A stretch of 64,000 nucleotides of DNA, from the IMG/VR virus record IMGVR_UViG_3300020045_006345, one strand, 5' to 3'. The notes under the pieces are model-generated. The model saw only the letters and a program-made list of their open reading frames with translations. It did no database searches and was not told the DNA's origin. The DNA is from an uncultured virus (IMG/VR IMGVR_UViG_3300020045_006345). Taxonomy: Duplodnaviria; Heunggongvirae; Uroviricota; Caudoviricetes. Of the stretch, positions 6,103 to 62,272 are shown in pieces; the first letter of the stretch is position 1; each line of letters starts with the position of its first letter. The translations under genes were made by a program, and so were the position numbers.

Positions 6103-7158
6103 TTACGCCTGACCGCGTCTGGCCTTAATCGCTGCGATAGCATCGCTGCGATTAGGTACTTTTGGCGGCGGTGGTGGCTCATTTCTGGCGGACGCGCTAG
6201 GCATTGCCGGAATGTTACGCTTTTGTACCTTACGGGCTTTCATATCTGGTACTTCAGGAGCTTCAGGTTCCGCTACAGGAGCTTCAGGTTCCGCTACAGG
6301 AGCTTCAGGTTCCGCTACAGGAGCTTCAGGTTCCGCTACAGGAGCTTCAGGTTCCGCTACAGGAGCTTCAGTCGCTTCACTTGGGTACAAGTCCGCCACG
6401 GCTTGGCGTAAAGCTTCTGCTGCACTCATACCGTTGTTTCTGTAAACATCAGATACCGCTAACACTTTATCGGCTTCGATACCGTCTTGTGCTAGTTCTG
6501 GATGTACTGCAGCCAATTCTTCGGCTGTCGCTAAATAGTCACTTTCTTCGGCAGCAACTTGTGCTTCCGATTTTGCTCTGTGAGTATTTTCGTGGAATCG
6601 GTGTTCCTGAAGTTGCTTGTACAAAACTTTAGCCTGTTCCATATCTCCATACGCTAACGCTTCATGGTATTGGTCAACTAAAGCATCGTGCGCTTCACCT
6701 GGCGGTGGCGTATACTCGCCAACGGGTGTAGTCTTTGGAGCTACAGAAGAGGGGGGTGAAACCGGCACCTTTTGTTCCGCTTCTGGTTCCGCTTCTGGTT
6801 CCGCTTCGGTACCTTCGTCTTCCGTTGCCATTTCTTCTGCAGATTCGGTAACTTCTTCATTTTCGTGTTCCGCCGCTCCTACGATCCCGCCTTCCGCGTA
6901 CCCTTCGACATCGTTGGGTTTTTCTTCGGTTGCTGCTGGAATTTCAACTTGGACACCCACCGCTGGAGGCACTGTTTCTTGCGCGGCTACTTCAGCGGCT
7001 TCGTCTACTGGTTTCCCAGCATTTTTAGCGGAGCTTCGGCGTCCCGCACGTAACCTTGCAGCTACGTTTTTGTCTTTTGAGTAGTCGGGCATTGGGGCCT
7101 CAACTACCGGTTTTTTATCAGCCATTGTTTCTTCCTCTTTGGGAACGTAACGTCTCAC
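6103..7158 (-). CDS. Capsid scaffolding protein
   Basis: Acidic, Ala/Pro/Glu-rich ORF between portal and capsid, with a basic C-terminal helix (RSDAIAAIKARRGQA). Confidence 0.75.
   Translation of the reverse strand: MRRYVPKEEETMADKKPVVEAPMPDYSKDKNVAARLRAGRRSSAKNAGKPVDEAAEVAAQETVPPAVGVQVEIPAATEEKPNDVEGYAEGGIVGAAEHENEEVTESAEEMATEDEGTEAEPEAEPEAEQKVPVSPPSSVAPKTTPVGEYTPPPGEAHDALVDQYHEALAYGDMEQAKVLYKQLQEHRFHENTHRAKSEAQVAAEESDYLATAEELAAVHPELAQDGIEADKVLAVSDVYRNNGMSAAEALRQAVADLYPSEATEAPVAEPEAPVAEPEAPVAEPEAPVAEPEAPVAEPEAPEVPDMKARKVQKRNIPAMPSASARNEPPPPPKVPNRSDAIAAIKARRGQA
6255..6371. repeat. 21-bp tandem repeat, about 5.5 copies, encoding PVAEPEA
   Basis: CAGGAGCTTCAGGTTCCGCTA repeated. Confidence 0.95.
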
Positions 7159-13976: not shown

Positions 13977-15138
13977 GGCTATTCGGAAGATGATGTGTTT
14001 TTAACATTTCCATTTTCATCAATTGAAATTACCTCCAGTGTGGTTCCTGCTTTATAAAAAGCCTTATCAAGTTGTTTGCGACTTACTTTCTTTCTGCTAA
14101 TCGCAAGCCTAATTAACTTGCTTCTTTTGCGTAAAACTGGCGGCTTGGCTATTTGTGGCTCAACGAATATCATCTTTGCTCTAAGAGCCTCAAATGAGTA
14201 ACCACGACCATTTTTATTGGCAATTTTGATAATCCCATTTACACATTCTGTATATGCATTTGTTACGGGAACATCAAAGTAGTTAAATATCTCAGTATGC
14301 CAGTTTGCCATTGATGTTATTAAGCCGCCAAAGAACGGCCTTATTTCAGGCTCAATACCATCCCTCCACGAATTGTAAAGGTCTATTGCTTGCTGCTTAT
14401 TAGTGGCTGTATAGATGCTATAGAAAGCCTCTTTTGCTGTGTGTGCCTGCTTTAGTATGGGATAGTTATCAAGCATTGCATCAAGTTGAATCTCTTGATT
14501 TAAATCAAGCTTTTTTACATGTTTTAATGTTAAATATCTACCTTTGAATAGAAGCTTTTTACGACTACTCTTGATCTTTTTCTTTTGCTTTTCTGTTTTT
14601 CCTTCTAGTATCGTATCACCATCTTTCGGTGCTAGGGATTTTCTAACGTTGTTTAGAGAATTTGAAGCCAATCTGACTATATGAAACTTGTCGATAACTA
14701 TTTTTGCCTTGGGAAACATTAATTTCGCCACGTCCTTGTATGGTTCCCACATGTCTATTGCGACAACCTCCACCAGCTCCTTATTTGGCATTGGCGACAG
14801 ATATTTAAGCAAAAAGGTCTTTGTTACGATACTCAAATATTTCGATAAGTCGTCTATTCTCAATATCGGTAATAACACAGCGCATCTTGTGGCCTAAATG
14901 CGCCTCGTCAATTCCTAGCCAACGTGGTGCATATAGCTTGTAACCGCATTCTAGCCTAGCTATATAGTCACGAAAAATGTTTCGGACTGTCTTTTCATTT
15001 ATGCCATAAGAGCCAGAGTAGAAGATTGGACTCCTGCGCCCAAAGATAAAATACGCATAAACACACCATAATCCGATTTTACAAAGATGATGATTATTCG
15101 CTAAAATGATCTTGAAACACACTTAAATCCGAATAGCC
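13977..15138 (-). mobile_element. ISL3-family insertion sequence, internally deleted, 1162 bp
   Basis: Imperfect terminal IRs GGCTATTCGGAAGATGATGTGTTT (13977-14000) and GGCTATTCGGATTTAAGTGTGTTT (reverse complement of 15115-15138); 8-bp direct repeat CATCTTTC at 13969-13976 and 15139-15146; ISL3 transposase inside. Confidence 0.92.
13979..15010 (-). pseudogene. tnpA: ISL3 transposase pseudogene (N-terminus missing, frameshift near 14810)
   Basis: WLGIDE in one frame; VAIDMWEPY, IDKFHIV and TNAYTECVNGIIK...GRGYSFEALRAK in another. Confidence 0.9.
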
Positions 15139-16775
15139 CATCTTTCAAGCACCTTGTTACCGCAGTTATATATTCTCGTGTACCCATTCATTGCCATGTT
15201 CTCACCTTCTGTCAGTGTAGGGTCATAAATAGGAAGTTTAGCTTCAAGTTTGTGCTTTTGAAAAGCAAACCTTGAATACCGTACCCCTTTCTTGACGTAA
15301 TAGTACCCTGGTTTTGAGATAGACACCTCTTTAAAGCCTGCGGCTTTGTACCCGCTACCGTTAAACAACCTTAAATCACAGTACGTTCTCAACTCTGACC
15401 AGTTTTTAGTGAGTTTTGATAACCCACCAACGACTTGCGTGTTCAGAAGTGTGCAAAACCTTATCAACTCCGGTGTTTCGGAATTGAATAGCTGTTTTCT
15501 GACTCCGAACGAGGCCATCGCTACGATCTCTCCCTCGAAGGTTAGGGCTACATGGGTATCTGCGTTCACGTAACCCTGAATATGGTTAGCGCCGTAAAAT
15601 TCTCTGGCCTGATCCTTAGAAGCTACTGTTTTCATGGTTTTTCTAGCCGGTATTCTGCGTTCAAACTTCCCTAGGCGAGTTAAGATTATAGACTCTACTA
15701 TTGGTCTTTTAGTCTGCCACTCGTCTTCGTATATCTGGATTAGGTCAATGCCTCTGGCATTGCAAGCTTTCAGTTTATCCGAGTGGAAATGCTCGCCCAC
15801 GCTGTTCTCGTTGTGCCAATATAGCCCATTGGCTTCAATAGCCAAATTTTGCTTTGGTAGGTATATATCAAGCTCGGTATACGTTACTAAGTCATATCTT
15901 GGCTTGCGTATTTGATCTCCTTCAAGCTTTAAGCGGTAGTTGTTCTCGGGAGCATATGGTGCTAAGAAATCTTGGATCTCTTGTTCCCATTTAGACGTCC
16001 TGCCGTGTCCGCATTTTGGACAGCCGTGCCCTTGTAGAAGGTTGGTTGGTGTGCTTCCAAAAACACCGTGCTCCCTACACGTAACTTTCATGTGCTCCCG
16101 CATGTTTGATCTCACATACGAGCCTTCGTCATATTCGTACTTATCCCCGAAGATTAGTCTTACTTTTCTAAGAAATTCTGAAAACGGTAGTGTGTTATCT
16201 GCGCATACCTTACACCCTTTACCTTGTGAGTGGTTAGCAGCTTTTTGCCAAAAATCGCCATGTATCGGGCACGTTATGCGCGTCTGGGCTTCACTCTTAG
16301 TAAAGCTATCCTCATGGTAGGTGTACCTGCCGTTATGGGTCTCTGTAGCCTCCGCTACGAAATCCGAAAACTTTTTGCGTGTTCTACTACACTGGTAGCA
16401 CCGTGATCCGCGCATCAGTGAACCCGCAATTTTATAGAAATCCCCGTGAACTTTACATGTTACCCGCGTCTTGTGGTTCGCGCCCCTATAAGTTTCCTCA
16501 TGGTACTCATAATCATCTCCGTGTTTCTCCCTCGCCCTACCCACCATTTCTGCAAAGCTTATTTTTAATGGTCCTGTTCTTAGCGCAATAGCACACATCG
16601 GGCAACCTTGACCCCTGGCATGTCTTGTTGCTACCTGCGTAAAATCCCCGTGTATTTTACAACCTATCCTCGTAGGCTTTGACATCTCAACGTACTCTTC
16701 TGGGTAGTAGATGTACCTATCCCCGTGCCGTTCTTTAAATTTAGTGAGGCAGTCTGCGGCAGTAACTTTTTTCAT
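15123..16775 (-). CDS. Zn-ribbon repeat (DUF723-like) + PD-(D/E)XK/Vsr-like endonuclease + Mom/GNAT-like C-terminus (Hef-like homing endonuclease), copy 1
   Basis: Four CxxHG...GCxxC repeats; ELDIYLP..NLAIEANGLYWH; ELIRFC..VVGGLSKL..YCDLRLFNG. Confidence 0.78.
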   Translation of the reverse strand: MKKVTAADCLTKFKERHGDRYIYYPEEYVEMSKPTRIGCKIHGDFTQVATRHARGQGCPMCAIALRTGPLKISFAEMVGRAREKHGDDYEYHEETYRGANHKTRVTCKVHGDFYKIAGSLMRGSRCYQCSRTRKKFSDFVAEATETHNGRYTYHEDSFTKSEAQTRITCPIHGDFWQKAANHSQGKGCKVCADNTLPFSEFLRKVRLIFGDKYEYDEGSYVRSNMREHMKVTCREHGVFGSTPTNLLQGHGCPKCGHGRTSKWEQEIQDFLAPYAPENNYRLKLEGDQIRKPRYDLVTYTELDIYLPKQNLAIEANGLYWHNENSVGEHFHSDKLKACNARGIDLIQIYEDEWQTKRPIVESIILTRLGKFERRIPARKTMKTVASKDQAREFYGANHIQGYVNADTHVALTFEGEIVAMASFGVRKQLFNSETPELIRFCTLLNTQVVGGLSKLTKNWSELRTYCDLRLFNGSGYKAAGFKEVSISKPGYYYVKKGVRYSRFAFQKHKLEAKLPIYDPTLTEGENMAMNGYTRIYNCGNKVLERWAIRI

Positions 16776-16886
16776 GATCTTTTTCCTTAGCAAGAAAAAT
16801 TAGCGAAAGGTAGGGCGGCGGAGTCTTGCTAAAGGACTTTTCGGACTCGATTTCCTAGCCGCAAGCTAATCGTAGCAAGTGCTGCG

Positions 16887-18497
16887 TTAAAAGTCAAGAT
16901 CCGGTGGTGCATCCGCCCAGGCTCCGTAATCGTTACCATGCACTCCGCCAAGACCTCCACCAATAGCATCGAAGAATCCTGCGGCTTTGGCTTGGGCAAA
17001 CTGTAGAAATGCGTCTGCGCAGTTACTGGCCTTGTCGTGTCGTGGAGTATTTCTCCAGGTACCCGCTCTTGGGTTCCACTCTTTTCGGTAATTCTGTAAG
17101 TGTTTCAACCCTTGGGCACAGTTTTCCGCGTCGAATACGCATAGTGGTAGGATATTACGTGCTTGTTGAATCGCCATAACCTTATCCGGTGTCCGTGGGA
17201 TCAACCAAAACCGCCAATGGGGGGCCGCAGCACTCAACATCTCTTCGGGCGTAAGATTCCTATCTTGTCCTTGCCTTCGCTGGTTTGCGTCATGCGGCAA
17301 ATACACATATCCCAATACATATCCGAGTTTGTCCACCACATCAACGAAGTGGGCAAAAGGTTCACCGGAGGCTTCGTAATAGTTGATGACGGCGTAGTGG
17401 GTTCGTTTTGGTTGAATAAACCAGATTGCCGTTTCATCATTCGCTCCAATGTCCCAAAACAGTGATACTGGGTACTGCGGATCGTATGGGGCCATGCCGA
17501 TACGTCCTTCCTTCCTGATCCGCGTAAACTGTTCTTTAAAATACGCGCCTTCCATGGAGATTTTAAATGCTTCATTTGCTTCTGAGGGCTGCTCTGCCCA
17601 CATTTTTTCTTCGTCACCCATATAGGTGTAATCGCGGAATGCTACGTACCATGTGCGCTGTTCTTGGGTTATTTTAACTCCCAAGCGTACTTCCAGTTCA
17701 TCAAAGTAGGCTTGATCCTTTTGGGGGATCACTACCGAGCCTACCGGTGCCCTATAGTTCGGATTCTGGAACCATGCAAAGAAGAAGAACTTGAACTGCA
17801 ATTTCCATAATGGTTTTCCAGTCTCCATGGTGGCGATTGCCATCTGCACCATATCGTAGAAATCTCCTTCCTGGCCTTCGGCTGTGGACTCAACGAAAAT
17901 TAAACCATCTTCCGCTACCGCAGTAATAGACCCGGTTATGATCTCTTTCGATTTGCCTGGGTCTTTGGCTGCTATTTTACCGAATTCCGAGACGTGAAGC
18001 ATTGTCGGTGTAGTACCCCTCGCGTTTGTAGATACCTCGATTCGGGAGTGATTATTAAATTCGATGACTGTTTTTGTCGCTTGGCCCTCAATAGGGATTG
18101 CCGTTTTAAGTGGGTCTGGAAGTCCATCATAGGAGAATTTGAGTACGTCTCTGAAGATCGCTTCTGCGATACCCAAGTCCTGAGCGATAACGCGGCATGC
18201 TTCATTCGACGAAAACATTGCGGTATCCAGCATGAGTAACTGGATTGCGGTCGAGAATCCGAGTTTTCGGCATTTAAGAATGACATTTCGGGTATGAAGA
18301 TTGTCGTATAGGTACGTTTGCGCTGCATTTTCTTTAAATAAAACTACTTCTTTTTTGGCATTAATAATCCGATAGAGGTTGTTCAACCTCCATCGGATGT
18401 CACCCAAACCAGCCCGTGCTTCCTCTTCCGTAAAATCGAAGACCACAAGATCGGTCTTCTTAGGAGGGAACATTAGTTTCCGTTGTGGCTTTAGCAT
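16887..18497 (-). CDS. terL: Terminase large subunit
   Basis: ILKCRKLGFST Walker A, LHVSEFG Walker B, VESTAEG, WDIG..DETAIW, LPHDA, HDKASNCADA. Confidence 0.95.
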   Translation of the reverse strand: MLKPQRKLMFPPKKTDLVVFDFTEEEARAGLGDIRWRLNNLYRIINAKKEVVLFKENAAQTYLYDNLHTRNVILKCRKLGFSTAIQLLMLDTAMFSSNEACRVIAQDLGIAEAIFRDVLKFSYDGLPDPLKTAIPIEGQATKTVIEFNNHSRIEVSTNARGTTPTMLHVSEFGKIAAKDPGKSKEIITGSITAVAEDGLIFVESTAEGQEGDFYDMVQMAIATMETGKPLWKLQFKFFFFAWFQNPNYRAPVGSVVIPQKDQAYFDELEVRLGVKITQEQRTWYVAFRDYTYMGDEEKMWAEQPSEANEAFKISMEGAYFKEQFTRIRKEGRIGMAPYDPQYPVSLFWDIGANDETAIWFIQPKRTHYAVINYYEASGEPFAHFVDVVDKLGYVLGYVYLPHDANQRRQGQDRNLTPEEMLSAAAPHWRFWLIPRTPDKVMAIQQARNILPLCVFDAENCAQGLKHLQNYRKEWNPRAGTWRNTPRHDKASNCADAFLQFAQAKAAGFFDAIGGGLGGVHGNDYGAWADAPPDLDF

Positions 18498-20004: not shown

Positions 20005-21687
20005 TCAAATCAAATCGTGATTATCCTCTTCCGAGAATTGCGCGTCAACCCGTTCTAACACCATATTGCCGCAATTAAAAATCCTAGTGTACCCATTACG
20101 TCCCATATTCTCTATCTCAGACAGTTCAGGATCAAAGTCCGGTAACCTATCTGCCAACTTGTGTTTCTGAAACATAAACCTTGAATACCTTACGTTATTC
20201 TTTACGTAATAGTACCCAGGGGGCGTTACCGAAATCTCTTTAAACCCTGCGATTTTGTACCCTTTACCGTTGAATAGCCTTAGATCGCAGTAGGTTCTAA
20301 GCTTCTTAAAACCCTTGGTTAGCTTAGATAGCCCCCCGATAATTTGAGTGTTTAGCAATGTGCAAAAACGAACAAGTTCTTGGGTATCGGAGTTGAAAAG
20401 ATGTTTGCGTTTCCCAAAAGAGGCCATCGCAACGATTTCTCCATCTAAGGTTAGTGCTCTGTGTAATTCGCAATTAGCGTATCCTTGAATGTGGTTTTCA
20501 TCATAAAACTTGCGAGCTACGCTTGCCGATACCAGTACCGTTATCGTTTTTCTGGCTGGGATTTTTCGTTCATACGTGCCTAATCTCGTTAACACTATCG
20601 ATTTTACGATGCTTTGTTTTGTCTGCCACTCATCTTCATAGACCTGAATAAGATCTAGCCCCCTAGCATTGCAAGCTTTTAACTTATCCGAATGGTAATG
20701 TTTCCCCACATGCAACTCATCGTGCCAATACGTACCATGCGCTTCTACCGCTAGATTATGCTTCGGAAAATAAAGATCTAACTCCGTGTACGTAGACAGG
20801 TCGTACCCTGGTTTTCTAACTAGATCCCCTTCAAGTTTTAAGCGATAGTTGTTCTCTGGAAGGTATGGGGCCAAGAAATCTTGTATCTCTTTCTCCCACT
20901 TAGACGAACTACCTGCCGCTGCGCACTTTCTACACCCAAAACCTTTCAAATGGCTTGACGCTTGCTGCGTAAACGAACCATGATCCGGGCAAACTATCTC
21001 TACTTGGCTGTTCGCTTTTTTGTAAGACTCTTCTGCGTAAGTGTATCTATCCGCGTGTACCGCGTTTGCTTCTTTGACAAATATCTCAAACGTTTTTGTA
21101 AGCTTTAATCTCTTCTCAATCTCTCCACACTTAGGGCACTCAGAACCCTGTAAGTGGTTTCCCCCAAGTTGCGTAAACTCTCCATGTTCAGGACAAATTA
21201 TCTTTATCAACCCGTTAGTTTTATCAAACGACTCTTCGACATACGTATATTTTCCGTCGTGAACGGCATTAGCTCTCACAACGAAATCTTTTACGTTACC
21301 TCGATTAGAAACTATTTTGTTTCCGCAGGTCGGGCATCCAGTTCCTGAAACATGCTGGTACGCGTTTTGCCAAAAGTCACCATGCTCCGCGCAGGTTATT
21401 CTAGTCTTATTTTGCGAACCAGAATATTCACCTCTATGGTACGTGTATCTGTCTCCGTGTTTAGCCAGGGCTTGCTTTTCAAAAACGTCAAATGTCTTTC
21501 TTACCTGAATTTTTGCACACAGTGGGCACCCTCTACCCTTCAGGTGATCCGCCGCCACTTGTAAAAACTCCCCGTGAATAGTGCAAACAATACGGACATG
21601 CGCTTTTATTTTAGAATACGACTCTTCCACATACGTGTACCTATCCCCGTGTTTATCCTTGGCTCGTAGCAAAAACTTACTAAACAT
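20005..21687 (-). CDS. Zn-ribbon repeat + endonuclease + Mom/GNAT-like protein, copy 2
   Basis: Paralogue of 15123-16775 (SKWEKEIQDFLAPY.PENNYRLKLEGD). Confidence 0.78.
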   Translation of the reverse strand: MFSKFLLRAKDKHGDRYTYVEESYSKIKAHVRIVCTIHGEFLQVAADHLKGRGCPLCAKIQVRKTFDVFEKQALAKHGDRYTYHRGEYSGSQNKTRITCAEHGDFWQNAYQHVSGTGCPTCGNKIVSNRGNVKDFVVRANAVHDGKYTYVEESFDKTNGLIKIICPEHGEFTQLGGNHLQGSECPKCGEIEKRLKLTKTFEIFVKEANAVHADRYTYAEESYKKANSQVEIVCPDHGSFTQQASSHLKGFGCRKCAAAGSSSKWEKEIQDFLAPYLPENNYRLKLEGDLVRKPGYDLSTYTELDLYFPKHNLAVEAHGTYWHDELHVGKHYHSDKLKACNARGLDLIQVYEDEWQTKQSIVKSIVLTRLGTYERKIPARKTITVLVSASVARKFYDENHIQGYANCELHRALTLDGEIVAMASFGKRKHLFNSDTQELVRFCTLLNTQIIGGLSKLTKGFKKLRTYCDLRLFNGKGYKIAGFKEISVTPPGYYYVKNNVRYSRFMFQKHKLADRLPDFDPELSEIENMGRNGYTRIFNCGNMVLERVDAQFSEEDNHDLI

Positions 21688-32061: not shown

Positions 32062-32382
32062 ATGTACACTTTATTACCCCATTGGCACAGCCGAAATACC
32101 CCTAGTCCGACCACCAAAGCCCCAGTGTCCGACCACCAAAGCCCCAGTGTCCGACCACCCGAGCCTCAGAAACCACAAACCTTCGTGGATGAGCTGGTAG
32201 GATCTACAGTAACCTCAGCCGTAGCACACGTAAACGGTGGCTCAGATAGTAATTTTGTATTGGAGTTGGATTTTTCGAATGGATCAAAGTTATTAGCCCT
32301 GGCGAGTATGGAGCACCCGCATATCGAAAGTGATAAAATACAGGCCACACAAAATTATGTACAGGATTTACTAAATGTTTAA
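32062..32382 (+). CDS. Hypothetical protein containing a 21-bp tandem repeat (about 32105-32158)
   Basis: GTCCGACCACCAAAGCCCCAGT-type unit repeated about 2.5 times. Confidence 0.55.
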   Translation: MYTLLPHWHSRNTPSPTTKAPVSDHQSPSVRPPEPQKPQTFVDELVGSTVTSAVAHVNGGSDSNFVLELDFSNGSKLLALASMEHPHIESDKIQATQNYVQDLLNV

Positions 32383-32650
32383 AGCGGTTCAAGATTATTT
32401 AGATCGGGCAGCAAAAGCAAAAGCCCAAGAGGAAATGAGGTTGGGGTTCGCCAGCGCAGCACTTCGAATTTTAATGGACGGTGAAGATCCCGTAAATTTC
32501 CAGCGTAACCCGGAACACACGTATTACCTGCGTTTAGGGGAGGATGCCGCCGTATTAAGAATTCGGGAACTATTGCAAAGAGAAAAAGAACTAGCCTCCT
32601 TGAAGCCTGCGATTGTCAGATTGGTAGAGGTACTTAACCATGGCGGATGA
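32375..32650 (+). CDS. Hypothetical protein
   Basis: 91-aa ORF overlapping its neighbours. Confidence 0.6.
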   Translation: MFKAVQDYLDRAAKAKAQEEMRLGFASAALRILMDGEDPVNFQRNPEHTYYLRLGEDAAVLRIRELLQREKELASLKPAIVRLVEVLNHGG

Positions 32651-32858
32651 AGCAGACGTATCAGACATTCACGTCGAGGCTAGGCAGGCTATCGCGATCT
32701 ACAGGGTCTTGAACCAACCCGCAGCCAATATAGATGCCGACGGTAACAAGATCTGCCTGGATTGCGATGATGTGATCCCCAAAGAACGTGCAGCGATAAG
32801 CGTAGTTATTCGTTGCATCGATTGTCAGGTAACCCACGAAAAGGAGGCTAAGATATGA
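32640..32858 (+). CDS. traR: TraR/DksA C4 zinc-finger protein
   Basis: MADEADVS N-terminus and CLDCDDVIPKERA...RCIDCQ. Confidence 0.88.
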   Translation: MADEADVSDIHVEARQAIAIYRVLNQPAANIDADGNKICLDCDDVIPKERAAISVVIRCIDCQVTHEKEAKI

Positions 32859-34681: not shown

Positions 34682-35053
34682 TTAGCCCATCATTTTTCGT
34701 AGAGCTTCGTACATCTCGGCTTTAGCCCGACGCTTGTAGTCATCGTTCTGCAGTATCTTACCATCCACCCGTGTTTCTGTAACACCAGATACTTTAGCCA
34801 TATTGCTACGCCATATGATTTCCCATGCCGTACTAGCCTTACGCCAGCCTAATTTGGATATTAGGTACCCAATGGTAACGACCAGGACGTCAACCGCTTC
34901 CTTGACCTTCTCCACGTCTTCTTCAGCAGCGCAAAACTCGTTGAACTCTTCGTGCATTAGACGGTCATATAAAATCTCCTGTTGCAGGGAAGGTTCGTCA
35001 ACATTCTGGTTGCCCTGTGACATGAATTGCGTTTGATCGAATATTTCACTCAT
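34682..35053 (-). CDS. MazG/PRA-PH-like nucleotide pyrophosphohydrolase
   Basis: EEFNEF...KEAVDVLVVTIG...SNMAK...DGKILQ. Confidence 0.78.
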   Translation of the reverse strand: MSEIFDQTQFMSQGNQNVDEPSLQQEILYDRLMHEEFNEFCAAEEDVEKVKEAVDVLVVTIGYLISKLGWRKASTAWEIIWRSNMAKVSGVTETRVDGKILQNDDYKRRAKAEMYEALRKMMG

Positions 35054-48754: not shown

Positions 48755-49402
48755 ATGAACCCATTAGCGTTTGTACGAAATGCCGAAGCAATGGCGGAAC
48801 ATTCAAAAGACCCTTCGACCAAAGTAGGGTGCGTAGTTATCGATGTTGATAGCAATATTATCGCTTCTGGATTCAATGGCTTCCCAAGGGGGGTTAATGA
48901 CGACCAAGCTCGGTATGCAGATCGTACCGAAAAACTAAAGTTCGTGGCTCACGCTGAAGCAAACGCAATCGCTCAGGCCGCACGAACAGGGGCTAAGTTG
49001 TTGGGTGGGACGATGATACTAACGGCACTCTACCCTTGTTCGAATTGTGCGAAACTCATCATCCAGGCCGGGATTAGAAAAATCTATGCCCCTGTCATGG
49101 ATAGAGCAACCCGCAACGCTAGTTGGTTTCACGAAATGGGGATCTCCAGCACGATGTTTGAAGAAGCTGGGGTAGAGGTGGTTACATATCATAACGGTAG
49201 TCCGGTGATGGACGAAGATATTTATAGCCTGGAACTTTCGGTAAGAACGCTAAACTGCCTGAAAACCAGCGATATTCTTACTGTGAAGGACTTGGCGAGT
49301 ACCAATGAAGAGTATCTGTTAAGTATCCCGGCGTTTGGTAAAAACTGTCTGCGCGAAGTTAAAAGTGCACTTGAAGATCGAGGATTAGGGTTGGTAAAAT
49401 GA
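48755..49402 (+). CDS. dCMP deaminase fused to an RNA polymerase alpha-CTD-like domain
   Basis: SKDPSTKVG, GFNG, HAEANAI, PCSNC; then LELSVRTLNCLK...LLSIPAFGKNCLREVKSALEDRGL. Confidence 0.88.
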   Translation: MNPLAFVRNAEAMAEHSKDPSTKVGCVVIDVDSNIIASGFNGFPRGVNDDQARYADRTEKLKFVAHAEANAIAQAARTGAKLLGGTMILTALYPCSNCAKLIIQAGIRKIYAPVMDRATRNASWFHEMGISSTMFEEAGVEVVTYHNGSPVMDEDIYSLELSVRTLNCLKTSDILTVKDLASTNEEYLLSIPAFGKNCLREVKSALEDRGLGLVK

Positions 49403-52666: not shown

Positions 52667-52939
52667 ATGACACAAGCTGAATTATTAAAAGAATTGTCTG
52701 CCAAAACCGGTGTTAAACAGACCGATCTGAAACAGGTACTCATCTCTTTAGCGTCTATCGCTTTGGAAGAATTAAAATCTAACGGTAAATTTGAGGTGCC
52801 AGCACTAGGAATTATATCTACCGAACAACGCGCAGCTCGTAAAGGCCGCAACCCACAAACCGGTGCTGAGATTGACATTGCAGCTAAGAAAGTGGTTAAG
52901 TTTAAAGCTACAAAAGGTATTCGCGAAGCGATTGCCTAG
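52667..52939 (+). CDS. hup: HU DNA-binding protein
   Basis: RAARKGRNPQTGAEIDIAAKKVVKFKA. Confidence 0.92.
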   Translation: MTQAELLKELSAKTGVKQTDLKQVLISLASIALEELKSNGKFEVPALGIISTEQRAARKGRNPQTGAEIDIAAKKVVKFKATKGIREAIA

Positions 52940-52966
52940 GTAGGAAAAATAAAAGTTACAAATTTA

Positions 52967-53023
52967 GGAGCTGCTATCGCAGGGTTACCATTGATAAACA
53001 CCCCTGCGAAAACTACTTGCTCC
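52967..53023 (+). ncRNA. Minimal Y-RNA-like unit 1
   Basis: GGAGCUG...ACUUGCUCC bulged terminal helix; inner stem UCGCAGGG/CCCUGCGA; GUUACC and UAAACAC motifs. Confidence 0.7.
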
Positions 53024-53062
53024 AACTAATATTTAAAGAGCGTGTTTCATTTGGTGATTGCA

Positions 53063-53222
53063 GTTGTGGTTTGCAGGTAGACCTTAGTCGGTTACACTCC
53101 GGGTCAGTAAGGACTCTTAGACGTAAACGTTGTGGTTTGCCCCCAAAGAACGTGCAGCGATAAGCGTGGTTAACTCTTAGACGTAAACGTTGTGATTTGT
53201 AGGTAGACCTTAGTCGGTTACA
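53063..53222. repeat. Nested direct repeats: 28-nt repeats (53113-53140, 53173-53200) around a 32-nt spacer; 34-nt hairpin unit at 53063-53096 and 53189-53222
   Basis: ACTCTTAGACGTAAACGTTGTG(G/A)TTTG(C/T) twice; GTTGTG(G/A)TTTG(C/T)AGGTAGACCTTAGTCGGTTACA twice. Confidence 0.9.
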
Positions 53223-53293
53223 TTACCATTTACGTTTTCGATGTCGTGTTCAAGCCCCACCAGCGACTCCAAAAAGGTAAATGTTGTTTTTAA

Positions 53294-53368
53294 GCAGGTA
53301 TAGCGCAATAGGTAGCGCGGTAGCCTTCCAAGCTATGAGTGTCGGTTCGAGACCGACTACCTGCTCCA
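53294..53368 (+). tRNA. tRNA-Gly(TCC)
   Basis: GCAGGTA/TACCTGC acceptor, GCGC D-stem, CT-TCC-AA loop, GTCGG-TTCGAGA-CCGAC, encoded CCA. Confidence 0.95.
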
Positions 53369-53382
53369 AGATTTTAATATGT

Positions 53383-53475
53383 GTTAGGGAGCTGAATATC
53401 GGTTTAAGTCAGCGCGGTCTGTAAAACCGTAGTCGCTATAATCGGGTGAGGGTTCGACTCCCTACCTTAACACCA
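53383..53475 (+). tRNA. tRNA-Tyr(GTA), atypical D and T arms
   Basis: GTTAGGG/CCTTAAC acceptor + ACCA, GCGGT-CT-GTA-AA-ACCGT, long variable arm, GGTTCGACTCC. Confidence 0.75.
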
Positions 53476-53486
53476 ATTGTTTTTAC

Positions 53487-53560
53487 GAGCTGAAGTAGTT
53501 ACGTTACCAAAATAGCTGACCGCGAGTCTGCCAATAAACACCGTACTGCGGAAACTTGCT
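53487..53560 (+). ncRNA. Y-RNA-like unit 2
   Basis: GAGCUGAA...ACUUGCU ends; GUAGU-U-ACG/CGUACUGC stem; GUUACC and UAAACAC motifs. Confidence 0.65.
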
Positions 53561-53606
53561 AGAATTTAGTTTTAAATGTTGTACGTTATGCTGATGATGT
53601 GACTTT

Positions 53607-53637
53607 GCTTGGGAGTTTTTGGCCCAAGCCCTTTTTT
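53607..53637 (+). terminator. Terminator-like hairpin within the RNA cluster
   Basis: GCTTGGG/CCCAAGC stem followed by CC-T6. Confidence 0.4.
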
Positions 53638-53670
53638 AAGTGGTTCTAATCCTAGATCTACTTAAAAAAT

Positions 53671-53724
53671 GGTTGGAGTTGGAAGTTTAACTTGAGAGAT
53701 AAACACTTCCGACGAATATTTGCC
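53671..53724 (+). ncRNA. Y-RNA-like unit 3 (divergent)
   Basis: GGUUGG...UUUGCC ends; GUUGGAAG/CUUCCGAC stem; UUUAAC and UAAACAC motifs. Confidence 0.55.
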
Positions 53725-53731
53725 TTTTTAA

Positions 53732-53872
53732 TGCTTTCTGTAGCTCAGTGGTAGAGCCACCGAAAATCATCATGCGAAATTAACTTGCTCCCGAACCTAT
53801 AGTCAGGAAGGGAGCTGAATTTGTATGTTTACCAAATCAGTTGGTCGTGGGTTCGAATCCCACCAGAAAGCA
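53732..53872 (+). ncRNA. tRNA-like RNA carrying a Y-RNA Ro60-binding helix in place of the anticodon loop (circularly permuted YrlA-like)
   Basis: TGCTTTCTG/CAGAAAGCA acceptor, TAGCTCAGTGGTAGAGC D-arm, GTGGG-TTCGAAT-CCCAC T-arm; internal ACTTGCTCCC (53783) precedes GGGAGCTGA (53810). Confidence 0.78.
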
Positions 53873-53904
53873 CTCAATTCGTTTCAAAAGAACTGGAGAT
53901 TCTT

Positions 53905-55497
53905 ATGTCATTCGCATTTCAAGATCACGTAGATCACAAACGCGTAGTCGGCGCTCAAAACGTTGATAAACCTATCGCTGGTCGTCAAAACGACATGATC
54001 CAAAACTCATCTGGCAAATACGTATTCGAAGCGGCTAATCGCTTAGAGCGTTTCTTAATTTTGGGTACCGAAGATGGTACTTATTACGTTAGCGAAAAAA
54101 AGCTAACTCGCGACAACGTTAACGTGCTTACAGAAGCGTTGAAAACTGACCCAATGGGTACTATCGATTTAATCGTAGCGGTGTCTACACAAGGTCGTTG
54201 CATCAAAAATGACACTTGCATCTTCGCTTTGGCCTATGCTTCTGCACACGATGCTGTAGATGTTCGTAAATACGCATTGAGACAATTACCTGCCGTTTGC
54301 CGTATCGGAACCCACTTATTCCAGTTTATGGAATATGCCAAGTATTTCCGTGGTCGTGGTAGAGCGTTCAACAACGCTATTAAAAACTGGTACCTCCATA
54401 AAACCCCTGATGACTTAGCGTATCAGGTCGTTAAGTACCAGCAACGAAATGGTTGGTCACACCGGGATCTTTTACGCTTATGTAAACCAACACCGGTATC
54501 TGACTTGCAGAACGCGGTTTTCGCCTGGGTAACCGGTAAAGACCTTGAAATTAAATATCCAGACATCATTGTTGGTTATGAGTTAGCCAAAAAAGCGGAG
54601 TCCTTAAACGTCATCCAGCACTTGATTACCAAGTACAAATTGACGCGTGAAATGGTACCGACACAATGGCTAAATCAAAAAGGTGTGTGGGAACGTTTGA
54701 TATTAAACACTCCGTATATCGCGCTTTTGCGTAACTTAGGTGTAATGTCCGCTTGTGATTTTATTAAACCGTTTTCGGATGCTGAAACCTACGTTGCAGA
54801 ACGTTTGTGTAACGTGGAGGAAGTTAAAAAATCTAAAGTACACCCGATCCAGGTCATGATGGCGTTATGCACATACAGATCCGGTGAAGGCGTTAAGGGA
54901 AGTCTGACCTGGGCACCTTCCCAAAAAGTGGTTCAAGCTTTAGAAGACGCGTTCTATTTGGCTTTTGGTAACGTCGAACCTACAGGTAAAAACTACTTGT
55001 TGGCACTTGACATATCAGGCTCCATGGCTTTTGACAACATCGGCGGCATTAAAGATTTTACGCCCCGTGTTGCTTCTGCGGTCATGGCAATGGTAACGTT
55101 GAGAACTGAACCAAACTGCTTAGTGTTAGGTTTTAGCCATGAACTTGTCCCTATCGACATGAACGCTAGATCCTCGCTGAAAGAAGCGCAGGCTGCGGTA
55201 AGCAGCTTGCCTTTTGGGTCAACCAACGTTGGCCTACCTTTTGAGTATGCTATACGACACAAGCTGCCGATTGATGTCTTCGTGGTCTATACCGACAACG
55301 AAGTTACCTACGGGCAACATCCTGCTACTTTGCTAAAGGAACACCGTAGACATGGTTACCCAAATGCTAAGTTAGCAGTTGTAGCGATGACGTCAAACGG
55401 TTTCAGCATCGCTGATCCGAATGACCCAGGTATGATGGATTTCGTTGGTTTCGATACTGCGACACCTTCGGCTATCAGTGCTTTCGTTAACGCATAA
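53905..55497 (+). CDS. rsr: Ro60/Rsr ribonucleoprotein (TROVE + vWA)
   Basis: RLERFLILGTEDGTYY, RIGTHLFQF, KYQQRNGWSHRDLLRL, ALLRNLG, VHPIQV, LDISGSM, YTDNE, SIADPND.GMMDFVGFD; ACTGGAGA RBS. Confidence 0.95.
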   Translation: MSFAFQDHVDHKRVVGAQNVDKPIAGRQNDMIQNSSGKYVFEAANRLERFLILGTEDGTYYVSEKKLTRDNVNVLTEALKTDPMGTIDLIVAVSTQGRCIKNDTCIFALAYASAHDAVDVRKYALRQLPAVCRIGTHLFQFMEYAKYFRGRGRAFNNAIKNWYLHKTPDDLAYQVVKYQQRNGWSHRDLLRLCKPTPVSDLQNAVFAWVTGKDLEIKYPDIIVGYELAKKAESLNVIQHLITKYKLTREMVPTQWLNQKGVWERLILNTPYIALLRNLGVMSACDFIKPFSDAETYVAERLCNVEEVKKSKVHPIQVMMALCTYRSGEGVKGSLTWAPSQKVVQALEDAFYLAFGNVEPTGKNYLLALDISGSMAFDNIGGIKDFTPRVASAVMAMVTLRTEPNCLVLGFSHELVPIDMNARSSLKEAQAAVSSLPFGSTNVGLPFEYAIRHKLPIDVFVVYTDNEVTYGQHPATLLKEHRRHGYPNAKLAVVAMTSNGFSIADPNDPGMMDFVGFDTATPSAISAFVNA

Positions 55498-60248: not shown

Positions 60249-61169
60249 ATGGGTGGTGGAAGCTGGGCACCAAAAGATTGGGCCACATATTCAACAACGG
60301 CTAAAACGCGTTCCGTAAAGGAAACGTTTACGTCAACGTATTTACACAAAGATCTGGACCCGAAAGGGGTAGTGAATCGCGAATCTCGCGACTCTACGAA
60401 CCACCCACAGAGTACAGCAATCGGTATCTTTCTGGATGTAACGGGGTCGATGGGTAATATCGCAAAAGAGATCGCGGCTACCGGACTAGGTACTATTGTA
60501 GAGAACATCTACGACAAGAAGCCCGTTACGGATCCACAGATCCTGGTTGGTGCTGTAGGGGACTCTCTCTGTGACAAAGTTCCGCTACAGGTGAGCCAAT
60601 TCGAATCCGACATGACGATGGTCGATCAGATTCGTAAGATCTATGTCGAGGGCGGAGGCGGTGGCAACACGTTCGAGTCCTATGCGTTACCGCTATATTT
60701 TATGGCAATGCACACCGACATCGATTGTTTTAACAAACGAGGTGAGAAGGGTTTTCTGTTCACCATTGGCGATGAAGGCCCAGAACTATTGGTCCATAAG
60801 CGGTCGATTGCGCAATTTATCGGCGACGAAGTCCAAGCCGATCTTCCGCTGGCAGAGTTGCTGACGTTGGTACGTAGAAAGTACCACTACTTCCACCTCC
60901 TGATCGAAGAAGGGTCGCACTGCCGCGCATTCCCCGTTAAAACAAAAGCTGATTGGGTGGACCAAATAGGCCAAAACTTGATCCTTGTTAGTGATTACAC
61001 AAAACTGGGAGAGATCATTGTGTCAACTATTCAGTTAATCGCTGGCACGCCCGTGGAAGAAGTTATTAAAGGGTGGAGTGGCGACACTTCTATCGCGGTA
61101 GCGCATGCTGTTAAAGGCATGACCGCTTCCGGTTCAAACAGTGCGTCTAAAGGCGTAACGAGGTTCTAA
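60249..61169 (+). CDS. vWA (MIDAS) domain protein
   Basis: FLDVTGSMG, QVSQFESD, EGGGGGNTFESY, FTIGDE. Confidence 0.8.
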   Translation: MGGGSWAPKDWATYSTTAKTRSVKETFTSTYLHKDLDPKGVVNRESRDSTNHPQSTAIGIFLDVTGSMGNIAKEIAATGLGTIVENIYDKKPVTDPQILVGAVGDSLCDKVPLQVSQFESDMTMVDQIRKIYVEGGGGGNTFESYALPLYFMAMHTDIDCFNKRGEKGFLFTIGDEGPELLVHKRSIAQFIGDEVQADLPLAELLTLVRRKYHYFHLLIEEGSHCRAFPVKTKADWVDQIGQNLILVSDYTKLGEIIVSTIQLIAGTPVEEVIKGWSGDTSIAVAHAVKGMTASGSNSASKGVTRF

Positions 61170-62272
61170 TGCGTTCACATGCAGTCATAGGTATGAATTT
61201 TGGCGACGAGGGTAAAGGTCTTATGACAGATTACCTCGTCCATAAATTTGGCGGGACAGTAGTGCGGGTTAACGGCTCTGCGCAAGCGGGGCACACCGTA
61301 GTTACTCCTGAAGGTAAACGCCACGTTTTCCACCATTTCGGTTCTGGGACATTCTTGGGTGCACCTACGCACCTGAGTTTGTACTTCATGGTTCACCCCA
61401 TGTTGTTCAGACCGGAACGTGATGTCTTAACTAAAGAGTTTGGCTTGAAACCGGTGGTATCCTGCTCCCCAGTAGCGCAAATCATAACGCCCTACGATAT
61501 GGCACTAAACCAGCTTATCGCCGATAAGAGTCAGCACGGTAGTGTTGGCATGGGGGTTCATGAGTGCTGGTTACGTCAACGAACGTTGCCATTCTGCGTT
61601 AACGATTTAGAAACAGACCTGCTGTACGGCATGTCTTTGTTCGAGTCTCGCATGAGCACGCATGCTGAGTTTGCTTTGTGGAGAGCGGCAGCCATGGGCG
61701 TAAACCTAATCGATCACCCCGTAATGCAAAATGAAGACGTCGTGGCCCGGTTTAAAGAGGATTGCAAGTTTTTCGTAGAGAATTTATCCAAGTTTTCGCC
61801 CACAGAGCACTATGTTTTTGAAGGGGCGCAGGGTCTTCAGCTCGATCCTCGGTACGGCGTCATGCCCTACTGTACTCCAAGCGATTGCGGTATGCGTAAC
61901 GTGGCTTATGTTGCCGATAGTCTTGGGGTTTCAGTAGAAGCGGTCTACGTTACCCGCAGTTACGTAACTCGGCACGGTAATGGCCCTTTGGACCATGAGT
62001 GGACGGAGTATGGCACTTGTTTTGAAGATAAAACCAATTTAGACCACGTATACCAAGGCCCATTACGTTTCGGAGAACTTCGCGGACACTATTTTGAAAC
62101 GGCGCAAAAAGATTTTGCAAACTTCAGCCGTTATGGAGACATACAGCGTTTCGCCGTAACACACTTAGACCAACACGACAGCGGCGCTCACCATAGGCAT
62201 ACCCCTAAATATTTTGCCAATGGTGAAACCCGCCTTAACGTAAGTGAAGAGAGGCACTACGCAACTGACTAA
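61169..62272 (+). CDS. Adenylosuccinate synthetase-like protein (divergent, shortened PurA family)
   Basis: GMNFGDEGKG, NGSAQAGHTV, HGSVGMG, FEGAQGLQLD, YVTRHGNGPL, VTHLD. Confidence 0.85.
   Translation: MRSHAVIGMNFGDEGKGLMTDYLVHKFGGTVVRVNGSAQAGHTVVTPEGKRHVFHHFGSGTFLGAPTHLSLYFMVHPMLFRPERDVLTKEFGLKPVVSCSPVAQIITPYDMALNQLIADKSQHGSVGMGVHECWLRQRTLPFCVNDLETDLLYGMSLFESRMSTHAEFALWRAAAMGVNLIDHPVMQNEDVVARFKEDCKFFVENLSKFSPTEHYVFEGAQGLQLDPRYGVMPYCTPSDCGMRNVAYVADSLGVSVEAVYVTRSYVTRHGNGPLDHEWTEYGTCFEDKTNLDHVYQGPLRFGELRGHYFETAQKDFANFSRYGDIQRFAVTHLDQHDSGAHHRHTPKYFANGETRLNVSEERHYATD

Follow-up and report, generated by a model that had tools for sequence, protein, structure and literature searches.

The question raised by the locus described here is how a fragment of a viral gene came to lie, as a second copy, between two direct repeats in the non-coding DNA of the same virus. 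The virus is an uncultured member of the Caudoviricetes (IMG/VR record IMGVR_UViG_3300020045_006345), and the 64,000 nucleotides (nt) of it that were analysed are called the window throughout. At positions 53113-53200 of the window a 28-nt repeat, a 32-nt segment and a second copy of the repeat follow each other, and the 32-nt segment is a copy of part of the virus's own traR gene. A first-pass annotation of the sequence had offered two explanations for this arrangement, namely a guide RNA resembling those of CRISPR (short palindromic repeats that are clustered and regularly interspaced) systems, or the scar of a template switch. In this study I show that a copy of traR sequence has certainly been inserted with duplication of its target, and I argue, with a probability of roughly one half, that the 60-nt unit arose by off-target integration catalysed by the Cas1-Cas2 complex of a host type I system (I-F-like, with 28-nt repeats and 32-nt spacers), leaving a neutral neo-CRISPR scar. 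A mis-aimed immune record within a virus seems more likely here than a working guide RNA.

The upstream copy of the repeat, R1 (53113-53140, 28 nt), is interpreted as one of the two copies of a target site duplicated over 28 bp, and the downstream copy, R2 (53173-53200, 28 nt), differs from it at two bases. The copies are direct repeats identical at 26 of 28 positions, the differences being a G at 53135 against an A at 53195, and a C at 53140 against a T at 53200; the repeat finder itself returned 27 nt with 26/27 identical, which becomes 26/28 when the 28th base is counted. Between them, on the plus strand, lies the 32-nt insert or 'spacer' (53141-53172, CCCCAAAGAACGTGCAGCGATAAGCGTGGTTA). A scan of the window finds the 28-mer at R1 and R2 only, with none expected by chance, and no further degenerate copies are present in the window, as an identity of 15/28 is at the level of the background (146 of ~128,000 positions).

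The donor, or protospacer, of the insert is found at 32777-32808, about 20 kb away and on the same (plus) strand, where 31 of the 32 positions are identical. When up to three mismatches are allowed, the window contains the 32-mer at two places only, 53141-53172 (0 mismatches) and 32777-32808 (1 mismatch), and two such matches were obtained in 0 of 100 shuffles. The match spans exactly the segment between the repeats and ends at the repeat edges, beyond which the flanks differ: in the gene a T precedes and TTCG follows, whereas in the array a C precedes and ACTC follows. In a scan of the whole window for repeats, this pair is the only dispersed short repeat of high identity (97%), the other dispersed families of 24-45 nt being 66-91% identical. 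The donor segment belongs to traR, a TraR/DksA C4 zinc-finger gene (open reading frame (ORF) 32640-32858, 72 amino acids), where it lies between the two CxxC pairs and encodes PKERAAISVV. The traR product matches phrog_54, a family of DksA-like zinc-finger proteins, with an E-value of 1.5e-12, and PF01258 with an E-value of 1.5e-4 and 22.1 bits, which is under the cut-off of 24.9. The single mismatch, at 32804, falls on the last base of a Val codon that reads GTA in the gene and GTG in the insert, and is synonymous. The coordinates and identity of the repeats, as well as the exactly spacer-wide, same-strand match to traR at 31 of 32 positions, had all been reported by the first-pass annotation and were borne out.

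The limits of the duplication and of the insert are set by the donor match together with a third, partial copy of the repeat. Written in blocks, the locus reads A1-B1-x-C1-A2-S-C2-A3-B2, in which A is 12 nt long (GTTGTGGTTTGC), B 22, x 16, C 16 and S 32 nt, S being the insert, and the 28-nt repeat consists of block C followed by block A. The partial copy A1 (53063-53074), which had likewise been noticed beforehand, is real: it is identical to the end of R1 (A2) at 12 of 12 positions, the final C included, and it is followed by B and not by the insert. Because A1 carries the same final C without an insert after it, base 28 belongs to the duplicated target and not to the insert, and with base 28 fixed in this way the exact lengths are 28 nt for the duplication and 32 nt for the insert. 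At the left junction the array contains five C residues against four in the donor, where a T comes before them, so that the donor supplied four of them and the target one; at the right junction the array reads AA, with one A from each. Microhomology is 0 nt at both junctions, which are blunt, and no target bases were lost. In the whole system of repeats and insert I count three substitutions, two in A3 and one between the insert and the gene, all of them transitions, and the former two would have arisen in one copy of the repeat after the insertion.

These details bear on the possibility that the unit is an artefact of assembly or amplification and that the true genome has one 28-mer and no insert. 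A 32-mer that is present twice in a genome can mislead graph assemblers, and the locus is known from one assembly only. However, an assembler error would not duplicate precisely 28 nt on either side of a 32-nt segment in which one base departs from its other copy, and the two base changes between the repeat copies point to copies that have been evolving independently; I consider an artefact very improbable.

The same junctions can be held against a templated insertion in which Cas proteins play no part. During a template switch, or during the repair of a break by the machinery of the phage, 32 nt of traR would have been copied into the break and 28 nt of the target then copied again, the CRISPR-like sizes being a coincidence. 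The phage is equipped with a recombination and replication set of its own (a family A polymerase, a Gp2.5-like annealing protein and a PD-(D/E)XK exonuclease), the window contains other short direct repeats and duplications, such as a 128-nt duplication at 1-266, and the region around the locus holds other rearranged fragments that resemble the ends of tRNA-Gly. Moreover, TGTGAT is a string that R2 shares with the DNA just upstream of the donor segment, although it is offset from the junction and absent from R1. However, copy-choice and annealing repair depend on microhomology, which is 0 nt at both junctions, and such a process predicts neither the duplication of 28 nt around an insert of 32 nt nor the nested insert of 32-33 nt described below, which leaves it an unlikely origin of the unit. 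The earlier suggestion of a template-switch scar is right in that the locus is the scar of an insertion event, but its mechanism is a poor fit, as zero microhomology and exact sizes of 28 and 32 nt are those expected of the product of an integrase (Cas1-Cas2), an enzyme that was not among the explanations offered.

An integrase is favoured over copy-choice and annealing repair because there is no microhomology, the target is intact, and a 28-nt duplication accompanies a 32-nt insert; blunt ends without any microhomology are what would be expected from transesterification, and not from copy-choice. Cas1-Cas2 is the enzyme known for a product that combines a repeat-length duplication with a spacer-length insert. 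In the mechanism proposed here, a 32-bp prespacer would have been cut from the phage's own traR, or from the traR of a co-infecting, near-identical phage, and strand transfer would have joined its two 3' ends to the target at two points staggered by 28 bp, 53112/53113 and 53140/53141. Filling of the gaps would then have duplicated the 28 bp between the joins, and the outcome would be a locus-specific neo-CRISPR unit in the non-coding DNA between an HU gene and a tRNA-Gly gene. Possibly, this was the second time that Cas1-Cas2 hit this spot, after an older, nested unit. The duplicated 28-mer is local DNA, and it was not seen as the repeat of an array in any collection searched; these scans of large collections used exact matching of 19-20-mers, which diverged repeats may escape, and the habitat of the phage is apparently not covered by the collections.

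The published background describes several properties of Cas1-Cas2 to which the locus can be compared. Integration at off-target sites is reported in vivo, where neo-CRISPR arrays can result from it (Nivala 2018, as cited in 10.1101/148544, PMC7054753 and PMC6698737), and in vitro the paired off-target sites keep repeat-length spacing even at 43% identity to the repeat (PMC6698737). For the I-F complex, Cas1-2/3, the body of the repeat is described as having no strict sequence requirements beyond a 5' G or GT, while leader motifs are needed, and repeats are given as 28 bp long in type I-F and 29 bp in type I-E (10.1101/2023.05.26.542337). The prespacer fragments of type I-F are reported as 31-32 nt (10.1101/594259). 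Rulers anchored in the repeat set its length (PMC5039180), and therefore non-cognate targets could yield duplications of other lengths.

A number of observations weigh against this origin of the unit. I infer the enzyme from its footprint alone, and the host system to which it belonged, like the absence of a function, is inferred as well. The 5' flank of the protospacer, which is GAT when read on the plus strand and GAA when read on the minus strand, fits neither of the canonical protospacer adjacent motifs (PAMs), which are CC for type I-F and AAG for type I-E of E. coli, and for a I-F system one would need to assume that acquisition had 'slipped' by two bases at the CCCC. This comparison covered these two motifs, and AA-type PAMs of other subtypes are possible. 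No cas genes were found among the ORFs of the window, the locus is known from a single assembly, and the searches for relatives described below found none with an empty site. On the minus strand the first two letters of the 28-mer are GC (the G is present, the T absent), and on the plus strand AC, and not GT; with its 5' G on the minus strand it would be a partial fit to the I-F requirement. A change of GT to AA abolishes I-F integration, and with a scrambled leader there was none (10.1101/2023.05.26.542337), and because both GT and leader are needed, off-target events by a I-F enzyme may be rare. In addition, the difference of one base from the virus's own gene is predicted also by the model of a functional mini-array (PMC6858448), to which I return below. 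Finally, the two nested duplications of the locus are unequal (33-34 against 28 nt), which calls for a ruler that is relaxed or for a second system.

A geometry of this kind is, by itself, also found elsewhere. In a control set of 440,553 bases, comprising the window and 92 other loci, I looked for pairs of repeats, 24-38 nt long, with no more than two mismatches and 26-42 nt apart, which gave four units: two of low complexity, one in a locus from a metagenome-assembled genome (MAG) of Geobacter, and the present unit. The 28+32 geometry is uncommon and not unique, and that such units are not vanishingly rare again speaks against an origin by Cas1-Cas2; it is the exact donor match that makes the case. 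The Geobacter unit (locus L027, 805-889) consists of a perfect 25-nt direct repeat with a unique 35-nt segment between the copies, on a MAG contig retrieved in the search with the ISL3 transposase, and is an observation of CRISPR-like geometry in its own right.

Removal of the 60-nt unit (53129-53188, or an equivalent register) leaves the order A-B, 32 nt, A-B, which suggests an earlier hit at the same hotspot. The outer repeat has an upstream copy, A1+B1, at 53063-53096 (34 nt), of which the first 12 nt equal the end of R1, and a downstream copy, A3+B2, at 53189-53222 (34 nt), which overlaps the last 12 nt of R2; they are identical at 32 of 34 positions (94%). The 22 nt which the first-pass annotation had found to be shared after A1 and after R2 are real, and form part of this direct repeat. 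Between the outer copies, in the reduced locus, lies a putative older insert of 32 nt (53097-53128), whose last 16 nt are the first 16 nt of R1. The older unit can also be read in another register, as a 33-nt duplication (GT...AC) around a 33-nt insert, and the duplication then carries a 5' GT on both strands, for which I estimate a chance of about 1%; judged from these letters, it would be a good fit to the I-F requirement. No source for the older insert was found in the rest of the window, in phages, in plasmids or in E. coli genomes, and its central 20-mer gave 0 matches in IMG/VR. The junction of the outer repeat reads GCAGGTA and resembles the 5' end of tRNA-Gly, and the 34-nt repeat as a whole shows a weak similarity that could make it the 5' end of a decayed tRNA-Gly-like gene, for which no cloverleaf can be drawn.

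Alternatively, the unit could be a working mini-CRISPR array of the phage. The 28-mer would then be the repeat of a host CRISPR-Cas system, the unit would be transcribed together with the tRNA/Ro60 cluster of non-coding RNAs and loaded into the Cas proteins of the host, and it would destroy co-infecting relatives that have the GTG allele of traR, while the GTA allele of the carrier, or a non-permissive PAM, would avert suicide. Viral arrays of one or two spacers without cas genes have been described, in which a point mutation at the orthologous locus of the carrier averts self-targeting (PMC6858448), and the self-match of 31/32 with one synonymous change fits this pattern of a mutated carrier. 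On the minus strand the mismatch would be at spacer position 5. This position lies within the seed of type I systems. Both substitutions between the repeats fall in the last 8 nt of R2, which a CRISPR RNA (crRNA) read from the plus strand would omit. The neighbouring genes and RNA genes all share the plus strand, and a terminator was not found. However, the seed argument requires transcription from the minus strand, opposite to every neighbouring gene, and no promoter was found next to the unit; a simple scan of 52940-53290 found neither promoter- nor terminator-like sites.

Further results on the repeat itself are also unfavourable to a mini-array. There is no stable hairpin that is conserved between the copies: the minimum free energy is -4.8 and -2.2 kcal/mol for the plus strand and -0.3 kcal/mol for the minus strand, and each of these values falls inside the range of shuffled sequences. 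The stem of R1 (-4.8 kcal/mol, with 20 of 200 shuffles as good) is broken by the substitutions in R2, and the minus strand is essentially unstructured. The repeat belongs to no array of the collections searched by exact scanning, a canonical I-F or I-E PAM is missing from the protospacer in either orientation, and 0 of the 106 ORFs of at least 50 amino acids in the window matched a Cas family of PADLOC or PHROGs, in agreement with the earlier statement that no cas genes are seen; the phage runs past the ends of the window. The tests that could be run thus tell weakly against a guide RNA, and a working mini-array seems doubtful. Of the CRISPR-like guide that had been proposed, the 28+32+28 geometry and the self-match stand, whereas the guide-RNA part has no direct support, as there is no stable conserved hairpin, the repeat was found in no array of the collections searched and there is no canonical I-F or I-E PAM.

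The two ideas can be combined in the birth of a virus-borne array, seen at an early stage. Cas1-Cas2 of the host would have written a traR spacer, possibly twice, at a hotspot within the highly expressed tRNA/Ro60 RNA cluster, and the neo-array would since have been transcribed and used by Cas effectors of the host, excluding co-infecting relatives with the GTG allele and sparing its carrier. I regard this combination as rather improbable; if true, off-target integration into viral genomes would be a route to phage mini-arrays.

Relatives of the locus were sought in several collections. The repeat 19-mer gave 0 matches in IMG/VR and 0 matches in 185,579 GTDB species genomes, while a 20-mer pattern of the repeat was found in two contigs of the JGI metagenomes, one copy in each, in unrelated sequence and without an array, which I read as chance. 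The patterns for the shared 22-nt segment and for the protospacer gave 0 matches each in IMG/VR. The repeat locus is absent from plasmids and E. coli genomes, and blastn of the locus against the INPHARED phages, with E-values up to 10, produced only noise of 19-30 nt. Against the same phages, blastn of 52900-53900 gave matches to tRNA-Gly only, in 81 Pseudomonas phage records, and neither megablast of 30000-54900 nor blastn of the traR DNA gave a match. Within the window, blastn of 52940-53293 gave no other significant match to any part of the locus. Anchoring the search on proteins, IMG/VR yielded one locus by Ro60 (42% identity), nine loci by DHH (25-45% identity) and no loci by HU, and the loci anchored by Ro60 and DHH have no nucleotide similarity to the repeat locus. 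The distant IMG/VR phage loci L001, L004 and L005 have no tRNA, and the short direct repeats found in them are limited to two short tandem pairs (in L004 and L005) whose copies are not separated by a unique insert.

With regard to the host, the nearest phage polymerases are 46-49% identical to that of the window and belong to phages of E. coli, Bordetella, Yersinia and Acinetobacter, and these relatives point to a proteobacterial host. Bacteria of this kind commonly carry type I-F and I-E systems. The only transposase of the window, of the ISL3 family, gives no host signal, because its relatives (the best 80 of 109) are distant, at 30-47% identity, and spread over Bacillota, Geobacterales, Burkholderiales and others; against plasmids it gave 70-71% identity over 8% of the query only.

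Several known systems resemble the unit in part. Type I-F arrays, whose spacers are 32 bp long, share with it the 60-bp period and its division into 28 and 32, but the present unit has no stable hairpin, no CC PAM, no cas genes and two repeats only. Neo-CRISPR loci made by off-target Cas1-Cas2 (Nivala, Shipman & Church 2018, Nat Microbiol), as described in the papers cited above, share more with it: a spacer-sized insert, a repeat-length duplication of non-CRISPR sequence, the absence of adjacent cas genes, and a sequence specific to the locus. They differ in that their target was a cellular chromosome or plasmid, whereas here the target is a virus genome and the donor the same virus, and in that they were driven by overexpression, in contrast to a natural event that is accompanied by a second, nested unit of another size.

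The mini-arrays of viruses (Medvedeva et al. 2019, PMC6858448) are similar in having one spacer between two repeats, in being intergenic and without cas genes, and in that the spacer matches a gene of the virus type, with the copy of the carrier differing by a point mutation. However, according to the same source their repeats (and, in SPV1/2, also leaders) are like those of the host and their spacers vary between related viruses, whereas the present repeat matches nothing searched and has no conserved hairpin. Phage mini-arrays and solitary repeat units are also known (reference 58 of PMC6858448). The RNA anti-CRISPRs or Racrs, solitary mimics of CRISPR repeats in phages (PMC10651486), are, like the present unit, cas-less repeat-like elements in viral non-coding DNA, but as presented there they mimic host repeats and need no spacer, whereas the repeat described here mimics nothing known and the spacer is the informative part.

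I found no report of a self-derived, off-target spacer in a phage genome among the open-access papers and preprints that the searches listed. Off-target integration in cells and viral mini-arrays with host-like repeats are known, and new would be a self-derived spacer that was integrated off-target in the genome of a virus. If off-target integration by Cas1-Cas2 is indeed the origin of the unit, the locus would be a natural record of CRISPR adaptation gone astray, in which a fragment of a phage was written into the phage itself and the lineage survived with the mark. Viral chromosomes would then be substrates of Cas1-Cas2 in nature, and a simple origin for cas-less viral mini-arrays would be at hand. 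Likewise, a self-derived, spacer-sized insert within a repeat-length duplication could serve as a signature that reports the repeat and spacer size of the CRISPR system of the host.

The locus is situated in an approximately 880-nt non-coding stretch, in which it is followed by tRNA genes and tRNA-like elements that lead up to a Ro60 gene, and all genes and RNA genes around it are on the plus strand. Directly upstream lies a gene for an HU-type DNA-binding protein (52667-52939, +; PF00216, E 1.1e-24), and directly downstream tRNA-Gly(UCC) (53294-53368, +). A structured-RNA reading of the locus was rejected, as the fold of 53040-53293 is no better than that of shuffled sequences (z = +0.51), and no Rfam families were detected in 53040-53290, even at E-values up to 10. 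At 53383-53471 (+) follows a tRNA-like element of class II, in which the variable arm is long and the anticodon loop is CUGUAAA; its anticodon would read GUA (Tyr), it was missed by ARAGORN, and it scores 32 bits with the Rfam tRNA-Sec model, below the threshold.

Further downstream, at 53734-53871 (+), is a strongly structured tRNA-like RNA, which scores 44 bits with the Rfam tRNA model and whose fold has z = -4.1. Its acceptor, D and T arms are intact, a structured insert of 73 nt replaces the anticodon loop, and it lies directly upstream of the Ro60 gene, so that it is a candidate for a phage Y-RNA or YrlA-like partner of Ro60. The Ro60 gene itself (TROVE + vWA; 53906-55497, +) matches PF25045 (E 2.9e-52) and PF05731 (E 6.4e-39), and it probably starts not with the TTG at 53821 but with the ATG at 53906, which follows a GGAG. 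Some motifs recur in this non-coding cluster (52958-53030, 53385-53397 and 53773-53825). The motif TGCGAAA..ACTTGCTCC is present at 53005-53023 and at 53773-53791, with 84% identity, and strings similar to GGGAGCTGAA occur three times. The segment 52958-53030 consists of two halves that are permuted in order with respect to the insert of the tRNA-like RNA at 53734-53871, and its 3' end is similar to that of tRNA-Gly. The motifs common to the cluster may represent a repeated Ro60-binding helix.

The window as a whole belongs to a tailed phage, with an SU10-type portal, terminase, family A polymerase, primase, thymidylate synthase and a PurZ-like gene, and the phage continues past both ends of the window. 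The PurZ-like gene (61169-62272) encodes a homologue of adenylosuccinate synthetase (PF00709, E 9.8e-33; phrog_1211), and a MazG-like pyrophosphohydrolase is encoded at 34682-35053; together with the family A polymerase, these genes may indicate that adenine is replaced by 2-aminoadenine (a Z genome). No reverse transcriptase was found, and diversity-generating retroelements and retrons were rejected as sources of the unit. A guide derived from TnpB or an insertion sequence was also rejected, as the only transposase is the DDE enzyme of the ISL3 family, about 39 kb away, and the geometry does not fit.

The ISL3 transposase (13979-15122, minus strand; PF01610, E 1e-44) is seemingly split into two ORFs and adjoins an ORF for a Com-like zinc ribbon and a TSCPD/ribonucleotide-reductase fragment. 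Two large, paralogous HNH homing endonucleases (phrog_559; 15123-16793 and 20005-21687, both on the minus strand) flank the large terminase gene (16887-18497) on both sides, and two stretches of these paralogs, of 251 and 300 nt, have approximately 70% nucleotide identity. An unusual fusion of a dCMP deaminase domain (PF00383) with a domain like the C-terminus of the RNA polymerase alpha subunit (PF03118) is encoded at 48755-49402. Repetitive sequence is found at three further places. The duplication at 1-266 is direct and 98% identical, with a spacing of 138 nt, and lies in an ORF that runs off the start of the window. An in-frame tandem repeat with a 21-nt period and about five copies is located at 6231-6392 (ORF 6103-7158), and another, with a 22-nt period and three copies, at 32094-32169 in a proline-rich ORF (32062-32382) just upstream of traR.

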